Source: a virus (Duplodnaviria > Caudoviricetes). From it: a stretch of DNA of 64,000 nucleotides. The notes below the pieces were generated by a model, which saw only the letters and a list, made by a program, of their open reading frames with translations, was not told the DNA's origin and ran no database searches. The stretch spans positions 9,428 through 73,427 of the IMG/VR virus record IMGVR_UViG_3300028580_000062; one strand, 5' to 3'. The translations under genes were made by a program, and so were the position numbers. This document shows positions 9,011 to 30,687 of this stretch, in pieces (position 1 is the stretch's first letter; every line of letters starts with the position of its first letter).

Positions 9011-9718
9011 ATGGCAAAGATGGTAGGCTTATCGAGAAACTTGAAACTATCATGGTTGAATCAAGCCGTGGAGTTGGTTTCGAGCGAGTTGACAGAGAAT
9101 GAAATAAAAGAAAAATTGAATGAATACTTGGGCTTTGAAATCGGGAGTCCCACAAATGTTCGTAAGACCAGAGAAATTCTAATGTGCATCTGGAGCTATG
9201 AAAATGAATATACAGAAAAATTAAGACCTACAGCACTCGAACTGATTAAGAAATATCCGGATTATGCGCTTGAAATTCACTGGAGCATGATGTTGGCGGC
9301 TTATCCGGTTTTTATGGATATGTGCAAACTTATCGGTAAAATGTCAGAGTTCCAGGATGAGATTACGCTGGCCCAACTGAAGCAGAAGCTGTTTGATGAG
9401 TGGGGAGAGCGTACGACACTATATCACTCCATTGACAAACTGGTATCCACACTAAAAGAGTTTGGAGTTCTCATTTGCGACAAACCCGGAAAATACCGAA
9501 TCAGTAAGCACAAGGTTGCAAGAGATGAGATCAGTAGTTTTTTGGTTTATACCATGATGAATGTGGATGACAGTGGATATTATTCTTTTCAAGAGCTGAA
9601 CGCCTCAACATATCTGTTCCCATTCGAATATCGAGTGACCAAGGAAACTTTGTTGCAGGATGATCGTTTCGTAATGAACAATTTCGGTGGAGAACTATCG
9701 ATAGCACTGAACAACTAA
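9011..9718 (+). CDS. brxA: BrxA-like protein (DUF1819)
   Basis: 235 aa, abuts pglZ stop; last gene of type 3 BREX order. Confidence 0.7.
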   Translation: MAKMVGLSRNLKLSWLNQAVELVSSELTENEIKEKLNEYLGFEIGSPTNVRKTREILMCIWSYENEYTEKLRPTALELIKKYPDYALEIHWSMMLAAYPVFMDMCKLIGKMSEFQDEITLAQLKQKLFDEWGERTTLYHSIDKLVSTLKEFGVLICDKPGKYRISKHKVARDEISSFLVYTMMNVDDSGYYSFQELNASTYLFPFEYRVTKETLLQDDRFVMNNFGGELSIALNN

Positions 9719-26709: not shown

Positions 26710-26769
26710 TGAGTATGAAGCCAGGCGGGAGTAGTCCTGTCTGGCTTTTTCAGATTGGAGGAGTATGGT

Positions 26770-27291
26770 ATGGAAATTTGGAAAGATATACCTGGATATG
26801 AAGGAAGATATCAGGCAAGCACAGAGGGAAGAATCCGCAGTGTCTCTAGAATAATACAGGAGAAAAATATCAGTACAGGAAAGATTTATTATCACAACAT
26901 CAGTGGCCGAATATTAAAACCTGGTCGGTATTGTAAATCAGGACATTTATCAGTTGTACTTGGACATGGAGCGGATGGCAGCCCTGTACACCAACTTGTA
27001 ATGCGTACTTTTATTGGTGAACCACCGGTCGGTATGGAAGTATTACATAAGAATGGCAATCCAACTGATAATCAACTGTGCAATTTACATTATGGAACAC
27101 GAACTGAAAACATTCTTGATGTCTATCGACAAGGAGGAAAGTGGAGAAAACTTTCTGTTGATGATGTTGAAGCGATTAGATTTGGACTTTGGTGTGGAAT
27201 AAAAGGAGCAGAACTTTCTCGTATGTTTGATGTTGCTCCTATCTCTATTAGCCGCATTAAAAATGAAAGGACATTTGCATGGCTAGAATGA
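26770..27291 (+). CDS. Free-standing NUMOD4-HNH homing endonuclease
   Basis: WKDIPGYEGRYQASTEGRIRS (NUMOD4); VHQLV...VLHKNGNPTDNQLCNLHYGTRTEN (HNH). Confidence 0.9.
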   Translation: MEIWKDIPGYEGRYQASTEGRIRSVSRIIQEKNISTGKIYYHNISGRILKPGRYCKSGHLSVVLGHGADGSPVHQLVMRTFIGEPPVGMEVLHKNGNPTDNQLCNLHYGTRTENILDVYRQGGKWRKLSVDDVEAIRFGLWCGIKGAELSRMFDVAPISISRIKNERTFAWLE

Positions 27292-30182
27292 AAAATCTCA
27301 ATTTAGATCTGGAGACATTTTCGGATGTCGATCTTGCAAAATGTGGCGTATATAAATACGCCAGTTCACCAGCGTTCCAAATCCTGCTGTTTGGATACTC
27401 GGTCGATCATGGACCAGTGGTAACTGTAGACTTGGCATGCGGAGAGGAACTGCCAGAAGAGATCCTTGCAGCATTGACTGATCAATCCGTCGTCAAATGG
27501 GCATTCAACTGTATGTTCGAGAGGATCTGTATCTCGACCTACTTACGCAAACACTATCCTGAACACTTCACAACTTATAGCATTCCTGAAGATACGGTTC
27601 GCAACTATCTAGACCCAGCATCCTGGCATTGCTCAATGGTATGGTCTGCCTATCGTGGCTTGCCGCTGTCGCTTGCTTCAGTTGGTGCGGTGCTCGGATT
27701 AGAGGATCAGAAGATGACAGAAGGGAAGGATTTGATCCGTTTCTTCTGTATGCCACGTAAGTCGGATGGAGGTAGGAATCTTCCATTGGATGCACCGGAT
27801 AAATGGGCGGTCTTTAAGTCCTATAACATCAGGGATGTAGAAGTGGAAATCAGCATCCAGGAACGATTGCAGAAGTTTCCTGTTCCTGAGAGTGTCTGGA
27901 AGGAATATGCAATCGACCAGGAAATCAATGATCGAGGCGTCAGGGTTGATATGAAGCTGGTAAAGAATGCCATTGCGATTGATGAGCTAACTCACAATAA
28001 GTTGATGGATCAACTCACGACCATTACTGGCCTACAGAATCCTAACTCGGTCCAACAGATGAAAGAGTACCTGGCAACGAATGGCCTCGTCATGGATACC
28101 CTAGGAAAGAAGGCAGTGCGTGAAATGGTCAAGACAGCACCAGAAGACATGAAGACGGTTCTGGAGTTGCGCCAAGAGACTGCAAAGTCATCCATCAAGA
28201 AGTTCCAAACGATGGAGCGTGCAGCTTGCAGTGATGATCGAGTTCGCGGGATGTTCCAGTTCTTTGGGGCTCCACGTACCGGTCGCTTTGCCGGCAGACT
28301 GGTCCAGCTTCAGAATCTGAAGCGGAATGATATGCCAGATTTAGCGGAGGCCCGAGCACTGGTCAAGGAAGGTAACTATGAAGCGTTGGAACTGCTCTAT
28401 GACTCAGTGCCTGAGGTCCTATCGGAATTGATCCGGACGGCATTGATTCCAAAGCCAGGATATAAGTTCTATGTTGCTGACTACTCCGCAGTTGAAGCCA
28501 GATGTCTTTCTTTCCTTGCCAAAGAACAATGGCGGATAGATTCCTTTGCGGCCAATAAGGATATCTATTGCGAAACTGCCAGCCGTATGTTTGGAGTTCC
28601 AGTAGTGAAGCATGGCATCAATGGTGAGCTGCGACAGAAAGGAAAGCAGGCAGAACTTGCATGCATTGCTGAAGGCCAGCTTGTCCTCACAGATCATGGA
28701 CTGGTACCTATTGAAAAGGTCACAACAGAAATGGGGGTCTTTGATGGTGAGGAGTTCGTGCACCATGAAGGCGTTGTTTACAAAGGAGAACGAGAGGTAA
28801 TGACATATGAAGGACTTACAGCAACCCCAGACCATTACGTGTGGGTCGAAGGGAAACAGGAGCCAATACAGCTTGGAGTCGCCGCCACCTGCGGCGCACA
28901 TCTCGTACAGTCCGGAGATGGTAGGAACCCATTACGGCTGGATAGAGATCATCAGCCCGGAGAAGCGCTGGAACAAGAAATGGAATCATTGTTATGTGCT
29001 AACAAAGTGTCATGGGTGCGGCAGTATCCAATGGCAGATATTAGACAGTTTGAGAAGCGGAAAATCAAAAGGATGTCAGCATTGTTCTCAACCGAGACTG
29101 GCACCGGCATGGTTGTACAAAAGATTGACAGCAGCAAAGCAACGCTGCACAAATCCAAGAAATCCGCTGTATCAAGATTATGGAAATCGAGGCATCAAAT
29201 TCGAGTTTTCCAGCATCAACGAAGCCTGCCAGTATTTGATGACAGAGCTTGGAATTCCAGAACGAGAAATGGAATTAGATCGAATCGACACAAACGGAAA
29301 CTATGCTCGTGGGAATCTTCGCTTTGTTACAAGAGAGGAGAACCAGTCGAATCGAAGATTGACGGTTCTGTCAGAGTTTGCCCAGGAGTATTGGCCATAC
29401 AGCAGATCAGTTGTAACAAGGAAACTGTCAGAAGGTATGTCTCGAGATCAAATAATTCTCGAAGCACAAAAAGCAGTAATCGAAAAACGGAAGCACTGGC
29501 ACATCATCTCGGCAAGGCTAGACTTTATGACATTCGAAATGCCGGACCACATCACCGTTTTACCGTATCGGGACATCTAGTTCATAACTGCGGCTACGGA
29601 GGGTCAAAAGGCGCACTTATTGCAATGGGTGCGTTGGACCAGGGACTCGATGAATCGGAATTACAACCGCTGGTTGATGCTTGGAGAGCCACCAATCCGA
29701 AGATTGTTGCTTTCTGGTGGGAAGTGGATGAAGCAATCAAGAAAGCAGTGCGTTATAAGACAACAACGGAGACACATGGCCTGAAGTTTATTTGCCAGTC
29801 TGGGATGTTGTTTATTCAGCTGCCATCTGGCCGGTCACTCTCCTACGTGAAGCCAAGAATCGGTGTAAATCAGTTTGGCTCGGATTGTGTTACGTATATG
29901 GGCTTGGATTCCACAAAGCACTGGAGCAGGGTGGAAAGCTATGGTCCCAAGTTTGTCGAAAATATCACCCAGGCAATCTGCCGGGATATCTTGTGCTATG
30001 CAATGCAGACATTACAGTTCTGCTTTATCTGTGCCCATGTCCATGATGAATTGATCATTGAGTGCAAGGAAGAGGTATCCCTGGATGAGATCTGCAAACT
30101 GATGGGCAGGACGCCGCCTTGGATACCAGGTCTTTTGTTACGTGCCGATGGTTATACCTGTGACTTTTATCAAAAAGATTGA
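27288..30182 (+). CDS. Phage family A DNA polymerase containing an intein
   Basis: LDLETFS exonuclease, ADYSAVEAR (motif A), KQAELA|CGYGG (motif B), HVHDE (motif C); about 655 aa after splicing. Confidence 0.92.
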   Translation: MKNLNLDLETFSDVDLAKCGVYKYASSPAFQILLFGYSVDHGPVVTVDLACGEELPEEILAALTDQSVVKWAFNCMFERICISTYLRKHYPEHFTTYSIPEDTVRNYLDPASWHCSMVWSAYRGLPLSLASVGAVLGLEDQKMTEGKDLIRFFCMPRKSDGGRNLPLDAPDKWAVFKSYNIRDVEVEISIQERLQKFPVPESVWKEYAIDQEINDRGVRVDMKLVKNAIAIDELTHNKLMDQLTTITGLQNPNSVQQMKEYLATNGLVMDTLGKKAVREMVKTAPEDMKTVLELRQETAKSSIKKFQTMERAACSDDRVRGMFQFFGAPRTGRFAGRLVQLQNLKRNDMPDLAEARALVKEGNYEALELLYDSVPEVLSELIRTALIPKPGYKFYVADYSAVEARCLSFLAKEQWRIDSFAANKDIYCETASRMFGVPVVKHGINGELRQKGKQAELACIAEGQLVLTDHGLVPIEKVTTEMGVFDGEEFVHHEGVVYKGEREVMTYEGLTATPDHYVWVEGKQEPIQLGVAATCGAHLVQSGDGRNPLRLDRDHQPGEALEQEMESLLCANKVSWVRQYPMADIRQFEKRKIKRMSALFSTETGTGMVVQKIDSSKATLHKSKKSAVSRLWKSRHQIRVFQHQRSLPVFDDRAWNSRTRNGIRSNRHKRKLCSWESSLCYKRGEPVESKIDGSVRVCPGVLAIQQISCNKETVRRYVSRSNNSRSTKSSNRKTEALAHHLGKARLYDIRNAGPHHRFTVSGHLVHNCGYGGSKGALIAMGALDQGLDESELQPLVDAWRATNPKIVAFWWEVDEAIKKAVRYKTTTETHGLKFICQSGMLFIQLPSGRSLSYVKPRIGVNQFGSDCVTYMGLDSTKHWSRVESYGPKFVENITQAICRDILCYAMQTLQFCFICAHVHDELIIECKEEVSLDEICKLMGRTPPWIPGLLLRADGYTCDFYQKD
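28662..29588 (+). mobile_element. Class 1 intein (309 aa) in PolA motif B
   Basis: Block A CIAEGQLVLT, block B TPDH, block F RLYDIRNAGPHHRF, block G VHN followed by Cys+1. Confidence 0.93.
28807..29580 (+). CDS. HNH homing endonuclease overprinted in the +1 frame inside the intein
   Basis: CHGCG/CQHC zinc motif, KQRCTNP...YGNRGI, LDRIDTNGNYARGNLRFVTREENQSNRR; GAGGT (28794-28798) 8 nt before ATG 28807. Confidence 0.88.
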   Translation: MKDLQQPQTITCGSKGNRSQYSLESPPPAAHISYSPEMVGTHYGWIEIISPEKRWNKKWNHCYVLTKCHGCGSIQWQILDSLRSGKSKGCQHCSQPRLAPAWLYKRLTAAKQRCTNPRNPLYQDYGNRGIKFEFSSINEACQYLMTELGIPEREMELDRIDTNGNYARGNLRFVTREENQSNRRLTVLSEFAQEYWPYSRSVVTRKLSEGMSRDQIILEAQKAVIEKRKHWHIISARLDFMTFEMPDHITVLPYRDI

Positions 30183-30276: not shown

Positions 30277-30687
30277 GTGTTCGAAGAGATCAAGAAAGCT
30301 GGCTTTGCGGATGTGGATGCCTATGACGCGTTGGAGGCATTAGAAACAAAGCACTTTGCACCAAGACCGATTATCTATGTCTGTTCCCCATACTCAGGCG
30401 ATATTGCTGGGAATGTGGAGAAGGCAAAGAAGTATAGTCGGTTCGTTGTAGATGAGGGAGGCATACCAATTACACCGCATCTTTATATGCCTTCATTCCT
30501 GAAAGAAGAATCAGAACGAGATCTAGCAATCTTCATGGATCTTGAGTTGTTAACCAGATGCTCTGAGGTGTGGGTATTTGGCGAGGTGTTGTCTGCAGGG
30601 ATGCAGATCGAAATTGATCGTGCCCAACAAAAAGGGAAAACGATCCGGTACGTTGGCGAGGAGGAAATCAAATGTACGAAGTATTAA
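30277..30687 (+). CDS. DUF4406/nucleoside-deoxyribosyltransferase-like protein
   Basis: IYVCSPYSG...PITPHLY...CSEVWVFG...GMQIEI. Confidence 0.75.
   Translation: MFEEIKKAGFADVDAYDALEALETKHFAPRPIIYVCSPYSGDIAGNVEKAKKYSRFVVDEGGIPITPHLYMPSFLKEESERDLAIFMDLELLTRCSEVWVFGEVLSAGMQIEIDRAQQKGKTIRYVGEEEIKCTKY

Follow-up and report, generated by a model that had tools for sequence, protein, structure and literature searches.

How can one strand of a phage polymerase gene stay open in two reading frames over 774 nt, and what does each of the two frames encode? The question is raised by polA, the family A DNA polymerase gene, of a Caudoviricetes phage (Duplodnaviria) represented by the IMG/VR virus record IMGVR_UViG_3300028580_000062. 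The record comprises 73,427 bases and is graded complete by CheckV. The 64,000-nt stretch that we analysed (positions 9,428 to 73,427 of the record) is referred to below as the window; unless given with the handle of another locus, all coordinates are those of the window, and all features discussed lie on its + strand. We consider it probable that polA carries a homing composite, made up of a class-1 PolA intein and a separate endonuclease-like gene overprinted on it in the +1 frame.

PolA carries a class-1 intein with intact splicing residues

The polA precursor is encoded by an open reading frame (ORF) at 27279-30182 (967 aa), assigned from the ORF list and by Pfam DNA_pol_A (6e-17), a match that stops at residue 460; polA homologues in Streptococcus and Gardnerella phages carry the DNA polymerase I annotation. 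The polymerase is divided into an N-extein (27279-28661) and a C-extein (29589-30179) by a class-1 intein of 309 aa (927 nt; 28662-29588), inserted in the polymerase motif GK.AELA^(C)GYGG, with the caret marking the insertion point. The window reads ...GKQAELA, continues with Cys (28662) and the intein through to ...LVHN, and resumes with CGYGG. While related phage polymerases without the intein read GK.(A/S)ELA^LGYGG or a close variant, with Leu (Ser in one) at the position of Cys+1, intein-bearing alleles read GK.AELA^(309 aa)^CGYGG. The intein-less alleles, together with Cys1 (28662-28664), the block B motif TPDH (T55-P-D-H58; 28824-28835), the terminal H308-N309 (29583-29588) and Cys+1 directly after the intein (29589-29591), thus identify the 927 nt as a precise in-frame insertion with the hallmarks of an intein. 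None of these residues varies among 14 aligned inteins. A preliminary description of the locus, made from the sequence alone, had located the splicing blocks, the ORF, its stop and the Shine-Dalgarno sequence correctly, as judged by the sequence and the ORF list. Two of its details needed correcting: the predicted spliced polymerase is 658 rather than ~655 aa long, and the natural intein-less alleles read AELA^LGYGG, with Leu, and not ELA^CGYGG.

Structure prediction with AlphaFold2 (AF2), using the alignment of 14 sequences, divides the intein into three parts. The N-terminal splicing lobe (residues 1-85; 28662-28916) is modelled with a predicted local distance difference test score (pLDDT) of 81-88, and the C-terminal lobe with blocks F and G (residues 283-309; 29508-29588), the sequence of which is identical throughout the alignment, with a pLDDT of 69-83. 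Between them lies a stop-free spacer of 197 aa, the intein-frame filler (residues 86-282; 28917-29507), with a pLDDT of 21-31. The closest solved structure to the model is the Mtu RecA mini-intein (2imz; Z 15.5, root-mean-square deviation (rmsd) 2.4 Å over 116 residues), followed by gp41-1, NpuDnaB and other HINT matches, with 30 intein or Hint-domain chains at Z≥8. The filler is basic and hydrophilic (isoelectric point 10.5, grand average of hydropathy -0.95) and is predicted to be disordered between two HINT-forming lobes; its residues ~103-278 are gone in two naturally shortened versions of the intein, the mini-inteins of loci L041 (133 aa) and L031 (137 aa). Searches of Pfam and NCBIfam with both frames of the intein region returned neither an intein nor an HNH match, and a PDB sequence search with a mini-intein gave nothing significant, with the Neq Pol split intein as a weak, on-target hit (E 0.22). 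As the catalytic residues are intact and the phage requires a functional polymerase, we infer that the precursor undergoes protein splicing.

Two overlapping frames are open and vary differently

The +1-frame gene (28807-29580; 257 aa) runs from an ATG at 28807-28809 to a TAG at 29578-29580. Its 774 nt are open in two frames, as the preliminary description had it, and the third frame contains 16 stops. An intein-frame stop can arise only where a +1-gene NNT codon precedes a codon starting with AA, AG or GA. There are 73 positions at which the next +1 codon begins in this way, and none of them (0/73) is preceded by NNT, as compared to 26% T-ending codons elsewhere (naive P 4e-10). When the +1 protein was held fixed and its synonymous codons were redrawn (3000 samples), a mean of 10-15 intein-frame stops appeared in the window ORF and 9-22 in three relatives; against the ~10-22 expected we observe 0, and no resample (0/3000) was free of stops.

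Contigs from two other metagenome studies match 28541-29483 and 28679-29611 with 0 differences and 0 indels. Relatives were collected by blastn and tblastn against phage genomes, followed by IMG/VR and GTDB scans and a protein search. Among 27 further full-length 309-aa inteins the intein frame is open in 27/27 and the +1 ORF is intact in 26/27; 15 of the 27 loci are non-redundant, at 62-95% nucleotide identity. Frameshift errors in the reads and +1-frame stops in homologues had both been named in the preliminary description as grounds for doubt: the independent contigs lack indels and the 27 loci have the same layout, and all but one of the 27 keep the +1 ORF whole. The overlap is neither a chance occurrence nor a sequencing error.

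Codon-position variability, computed over the 15 non-redundant inteins, follows the two frames. The third position of the intein frame is the most variable one in intein nt 1-180 and again in the last 27 nt of the intein; from nt 181 to 900 variability peaks instead at the first intein-frame position, equivalent to the +1 wobble position. Variability is low at all three positions in nt 136-315 and 856-900, stretches in which both products are constrained. In the core of the overlap, the window and its relatives show an amino-acid identity of 0.59-0.63 in the +1 frame, as compared to 0.28-0.35 in the intein frame and 0.28-0.34 in the non-coding third frame. Two 95%-identical Streptococcus phages differ at 33 core positions, split 24/7/2 by intein-codon position and thus mostly at +1 wobble sites, which points to recent purifying selection on the +1 protein between these phages. 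Together with the resampling, these comparisons support the view that the intein-frame core is kept free of stops by selection while having no sequence constraint of its own. The earlier suggestion of a separate +1 gene with a neutral filler in the intein frame agrees with the +1 wobble, the filler identity equal to that of the third frame and the low pLDDT of the filler. The locus offers a clean natural case of long dual coding, represented in many phages: selection acts on the protein sequence of one frame, whereas in the other it only keeps out stop codons.

The nested gene has conserved start signals inside the intein

The internal translation-initiation region of the +1 gene, as read from the sequence, spans 28794-28809. 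It contains a GAGGT Shine-Dalgarno (SD) sequence (28794-28798), located 8 nt before the ATG and inside the intein codons Glu45-Val46, and an in-frame TAA TGA ahead of the ATG (28798-28803); the ATG itself is made from the TAT codon of intein residue Tyr49 and the G of the next codon. On intein-frame wobble positions GAGGT is conserved in 13/15 and ATG in 15/15 non-redundant loci, and the wobble sites neighbouring them are highly variable. The Tyr49 codon is TAT in 15/15 non-redundant loci, as compared to 55% TAT elsewhere in those genes, and the Glu45 codon is GAG in 13/14 loci, as compared to 31% GAG elsewhere; the corresponding probabilities, ~1e-4 for Tyr and 2e-6 for Glu, are upper bounds on significance, the loci being related. 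Since distant relatives have no second in-frame Met near the start of the domain, we regard ATG 28807 as the conserved start. In most loci +1-frame stops are found 1-3 codons ahead of the ATG; in a few the open +1 frame extends back as far as intein nt 83.

RNA folding around the start region does not exceed that of shuffled sequence (z +1.07). A scan for one promoter type, sigma-70-like, found none on the + strand of polA upstream of the +1 gene; this favours internal initiation on the polA mRNA, which would be the simplest reading for the +1 product. With the conserved SD and ATG located on intein wobble sites, independent translation lends itself to a direct test.

The +1 protein is a candidate HNH-like homing endonuclease

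The AF2 model of the +1 protein, based on an alignment of 60 sequences, has a mean pLDDT of 88.6; it is well defined from residue 30 to residue 250, its first 29 residues being floppy. A small beta-barrel N-domain (residues ~31-96; modelled strands E46-55, E62-68 and E74-78) holds a Cys4 zinc-ribbon (C68, C71, C90 and C93; 29008-29085), the four Cys of which are invariant or at least 90% conserved among the 60 relatives. It is followed by the core (residues 97-186; 29095-29364), with β strands at 156-159 and 171-174, an α helix at 176-181 and the motif ELDRID..G.Y..GN.RFV..EN..N; a C-terminal helical domain closes the model. D158 (29278-29280), Y166 (29302-29304) and N170 (29314-29316) are kept in at least 90% of the 60 relatives, and N179 (29341-29343) in all six sequences of the first alignment.

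Among profile collections, only PHROG families labelled 'HNH endonuclease' match the protein: PHROG 374 (3.7e-24), 3377 and 2081. BFVD models provide 90 matches at E≤1e-3, some of them named HNH, AP2 or I-HmuI-like homing endonucleases, and one of the 60 relatives touches HNH_3 (E 0.007). Taken with the model, these matches make the +1 protein a candidate homing endonuclease of HNH-like (His-Me finger-like) type. To our knowledge, no member of the family has been assayed.

Protein searches recovered 324 clusters at E≤1e-5 and 37,456 representative proteins at E≤1e-3, which makes this His-less HNH-like family a large one. Most of the 324 clusters are short metagenome contigs in which the gene caller picked the +1 ORF, and there too the intein frame is open. 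As a side observation, four proteins of the collection (P0256, P0162, P0220 and P0243) carry the core module either at the C-terminus of a ResIII/DEAD helicase or in 3-4 tandem copies within 500-830 aa, an arrangement unusual for a nuclease domain.

Distribution and states of the composite element

The same 309-codon intein with the same +1 ORF is found in Gardnerella phage vB_Gva_AB1, and the same intein in six Streptococcus prophages (Javan101, 104, 107, 113, 255 and PhiSdyV1524), with the +1 ORF whole in all but PhiSdyV1524. Loci from IMG/VR and GTDB add Ruminococcus callidus, Eubacterium, Succiniclasticum, Acidaminococcus, Oscillospiraceae and Faecalibaculum, with Acidaminococcaceae among the hosts. 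More distant nested proteins, 39-46% identical to that of the window, again lie in the +1 frame of homologous inteins, at other polA sites: ETA^CRM, 24 residues upstream, and HISKT^CGHAYSY, in a different PolA clade. The composite element is thus present at at least three different polA sites. A canonical in-frame form was not found among longer proteins, although with only six proteins surfacing this is weak evidence of absence. Two of the six, P0273 and P0274, were considered as in-frame forms and rejected: at the DNA level they are frameshift-disrupted fusions of PolA-N and HNH-C, and for three of the remaining four, length and a DNA_pol_A match are compatible with such a fusion.

Five states of the element are found among the relatives: empty site, full composite, endonuclease with a premature stop, mini-intein and frameshifted variant. 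The premature stop is that of Streptococcus phage PhiSdyV1524-fexAoptrA (L003 2721-3308), where the +1 ORF ends after residue 195 (..SQKY, then stop) with the intein frame still open; here the endonuclease has decayed ahead of a deletion. Mini-inteins of 168, 140, 137 and 133 aa occupy the same site (L008 2603-3106; L009 2732-3151; L010 2576-2995; L031 2356-2766; L040 1359-1757; L041 2356-2754); they retain the first and last codons of the +1 ORF and have lost its core. They stem from at least three independent deletions, each located beside a full-length form on the extein tree. In one metagenome-assembled genome (MAG), Ruminococcus sp. HRGM_Genome_2753, a full form (L037) and a mini form (L041) occur together.

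The frameshifted variants, L063 2501-4816 and L066 2501-4801, are related loci of metagenome or MAG origin with different frameshifts inside the overlap. The ORF called in them joins PolA-N, intein-N and the C-terminal part of the +1 protein, with intein-C and the C-extein in another frame; one of the variants is present in 9 contigs from several samples. They could be pseudogenes in the making or a step towards a split ('fractured') gene. A break of another kind is seen in the intein-less polA of Streptococcus phage Javan105 (L042 295-2283): an in-frame stop (LR-stop-KGKIAELALGYGG) lies eight codons before the insertion site, and the gene is annotated as two 'DNA polymerase I' coding sequences.

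The extein tree comes from a quick IQ-TREE run, the careful search being unfinished. On it the nearest neighbours of the window polA, joined to it with 100% support, are two intein-less alleles of 79-84% identity, as compared to only 56-63% for its intein-bearing relatives, and at least five changes of intein state are forced. These states support a route by which a free-standing endonuclease invades a mini-intein, every stage of which is present in related phages.

Proposed mechanism and alternative explanations

In the composite that we favour, an HNH/AP2-like phage gene of free-standing type, placed in +1, would fill the slot in which a canonical intein has its in-frame endonuclease domain. 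Ribosomes translating polA would pass through the nested gene in the intein frame, yielding the 197-residue basic, disordered spacer, which would then leave with the intein by protein splicing to give the 658-aa polymerase. The endonuclease-like protein would be made apart, with internal initiation at GAGGT-N8-ATG of the polA mRNA as the most likely route, and would cut intein-less polA, resulting in homing of the composite or in exclusion of competing intein-less phages. Flanking sequence would be co-converted, including the Leu-to-Cys change at +1.

Several points weigh against this interpretation. Translation of the +1 frame, splicing, nuclease activity and the target site are all inferred. 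The wobble-site statistics take related sequences as independent. Two 151-nt contigs in one metatranscriptome are identical to 28920-29070 and 29137-29284, possibly by DNA carry-over, and another run contains 29554-29704; as contigs from RNA libraries say nothing on translation, we gave them no weight. Between loci, the identities of the extein, the splicing lobe and the +1 protein are alike: all parts diverge similarly, so that no recent transfer is documented. Pfam and NCBIfam searches with the +1 protein gave no match, a PDB sequence search with the 60-member profile gave chance matches only, and Foldseek of the model against the PDB gave nothing at E≤0.001. The best relevant solved structure, the PacI HNH endonuclease, matches within residues 97-186 with a Z of 5.5, which is within the chance range (rmsd 3.2 Å, 76 residues). 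At the position of the catalytic His at least 90% of the 60 relatives have Asp158-Arg159, and nuclease activity is thus not assured; this placement relies on the gapless extension of a short, non-significant hhalign match between the +1 family profile and a neighbouring NUMOD4-HNH_3 protein, in which only the N-L...T..EN piece, the second half of the motif, was aligned. Finally, some relatives have tandem copies of the core module or carry it as the last part of a helicase, which would also fit a DNA-binding module. The preliminary description spoke of a clear zinc-binding HNH endonuclease: the Cys4 site and a modelled ββα topology stand, but 'clear' is an overstatement given the lack of a Pfam or NCBIfam match, the PacI score and Asp-Arg in place of His.

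These points lead to the alternative that deserves most attention, although we think it unlikely: that the +1 protein is conserved without being an active homing nuclease, and serves as a DNA-binding or other phage factor descended from an HNH_3/AP2-type ancestor that lost its His. The Asp-Arg that closes β1 in ≥90% of the 60 relatives, the missing Pfam HNH match, the tandem and helicase-terminal copies of the core and the co-divergence of intein and exteins, with no sign of recent transfer, all speak for such a factor. What speaks for a nuclease is PacI, an active HNH enzyme that also lacks the general-base His and uses Tyr as the base, with Asp and Asn on the metal (PMC4081073): D158, Y166 and N170 are kept in the +1 family, and N179 in the six sequences of the first alignment. 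The family further shares with PacI and with the HNH_3/I-HmuI His-Me finger type the predicted ββα topology of the core, an adjoining Cys4 zinc site, an Asn before β2 and an Asn in the helix, while differing in its weak structural match, the absence of a Pfam HNH or HNH_3 match and the Asp-Arg where HNH_3 has His. By this analogy nuclease activity is likely. The presence of the composite at at least three polA sites, its patchy occurrence on the extein tree and its decay to mini-inteins, as expected of a homing cycle, also argue against an inactive protein.

The remaining alternatives concern the way in which the two frames are used. A canonical bipartite intein would result from programmed ribosomal frameshifting, if ribosomes slipped into +1 close to the N-junction and returned close to the C-junction; in the few loci whose +1 frame stays open upstream as far as intein nt 83, the +1 protein could be fused at its N-terminus. 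We regard this as very unlikely: two precisely placed shifts would be required, most loci have the +1 stops shortly before the ATG, the ATG and SD are conserved at synonymous sites, the aligned start regions contain no conserved slippery site, and ~200 stop-free intein codons would be pointless if ribosomes left the intein frame. Even less probable is a fractured gene of the type described by Dassa et al. 2009, with a split intein and polA made as two polypeptides joined by trans-splicing; the L063 and L066 variants show that such decay is possible, but the intein frame is uninterrupted, against strong odds, in the window and in 27/27 full-length relatives, and since a stop-free intein frame is needed only for a contiguous precursor, this counts against a split gene. 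An assembly or sequencing artefact, with two compensating indels hiding an in-frame HNH domain, has a negligible probability: it is refuted by the census of 27 loci, by codon periodicity that tracks the two frames exactly, and by the identical, indel-free contigs from two other metagenome studies that cover most of the element, and the same frames are found in isolate-derived Streptococcus and Gardnerella phage and prophage genomes.

Beyond the overprinted intein itself, we tentatively raise a broader possibility, which we hold to be rather less probable than not: that out-of-frame coding is a stable, selected state of a large and old polymerase intein family and no transient intermediate, with overprinting throttling the endonuclease and tying it to polA translation. 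Phages of Bacillota, Actinomycetota and Pseudomonadota carry the composite, consisting of mini-intein and His-less HNH-like gene, at three or more PolA sites and in both +1 and +2 frames, and it has been retained while the nested proteins diverged to 30-46% identity. If this is true, elongating polA ribosomes running over the internal SD-ATG would be what throttles endonuclease synthesis.

Comparison with known out-of-frame endonucleases

The preliminary description noted that out-of-frame intein endonucleases had been reported in some actinobacteriophages, and such elements are indeed described by Gosselin, Arsenault & Gogarten (bioRxiv 10.1101/2025.01.02.630785): in actinophage inteins the endonuclease gene either runs antisense or, where it is endonuclease VII-like, uses frame 3, and the origin proposed there is the invasion of an intein by a free-standing endonuclease gene. 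In common with those elements, the window has a contiguous intein, an unstructured stop-free endonuclease slot and an out-of-frame endonuclease of free-standing type on the same strand. While the same-strand actinophage cases are endonuclease VII-like and in frame 3, the window gene belongs to an HNH_3/AP2-like His-less family and lies in frame +1; the polymerase host is DNA polymerase III alpha in that preprint, and here the family A polymerase of Bacillota, Gardnerella and Streptococcus phages. The preprint gives no ribosome-binding site, whereas the window family has a conserved SD-ATG and quantified two-frame selection. According to its title, a 2026 preprint reports a cyanobacterial dnaX intein with an out-of-frame endonuclease. 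Out-of-frame intein endonucleases have thus already been described in preprints of 2025-2026, and novelty is limited; the specific new points here are the conserved internal SD-ATG, the His-less HNH-like family and the homologous composites in two different frames. Our literature search found no paper on the PolA intein family in Bacillota, Gardnerella or Streptococcus phages.

The second of these two frames is found in composites of Jerseyvirus (Salmonella phage vB_SenS-Ent1; L005 1837-2733) and Dhillonvirus (Sodalis phage SO-1, L006 1908-2666, and Shigella phage EP23), both parts of which are homologous to those of the window. Identity of the Jerseyvirus PolA intein lobes to the window (N-lobe) is 34% (E 4e-8), and that of the nested protein is 30% (E 6e-20). 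The Jerseyvirus and Dhillonvirus intein is inserted in the same polymerase motif, 4 codons upstream (GKA^CELGLGY), and its nested gene, read in the +2 frame from intein nt 93 onwards, has no C-terminal helical domain. GenBank records only 'splicing domains' for the Ent1 gp37 intein and calls SO-1 gp39 an intron-type HNH (the SO-1 PolA intein being listed under gp38/gp39); the GenBank relatives in the window's intein family that were examined are annotated 'DNA polymerase' only. Gene callers, and intein surveys that consider in-frame endonuclease domains only, overlook such genes.

Two further systems place an endonuclease gene within a host gene in other ways. In the ShiLan type a hidden out-of-frame HNH lies inside an insertion in a mycobacteriophage DNA methylase (Arsenault et al. 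2025, PMC11855218), and as in the window the HNH gene is out of frame within a host ORF that is open throughout. Splicing domains are absent from the ShiLan insertion, which is presumably retained in the mature protein, whereas the window has a complete intein to remove the filler; the authors found no ribosome-binding site for ShiLan and proposed a leaderless start (PMC11855218). In fractured genes, a free-standing endonuclease gene sits between the parts of a split intein; the host ORF is no longer continuous, and its two products are joined by trans-splicing (Dassa et al. 2009, PMC2677866). Shared with the window are the endonuclease gene of free-standing type between N and C splicing halves and the location in a replication gene; the host frame, interrupted in fractured genes, is continuous in the window and selected to be so.

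Surroundings of polA

The neighbour of polA to which the +1 family was aligned by hhalign is a free-standing endonuclease gene with NUMOD4 and HNH_3 domains (26755-27291; Pfam 2.7e-13 and 6.4e-11), the TGA of which overlaps the polA start codon. BLASTP of its product against the nested +1 protein indicates that the two are unrelated (E 0.56), and polA is thus associated with two different endonuclease-type genes, one flanking and one inside. The gene directly downstream of polA (30277-30687) has the position that carries the nucleoside 2-deoxyribosyltransferase annotation in Heliusvirales-type phage relatives, and the replication module of the window is similar to a candidate gene order of Heliusvirales-type gut phages.

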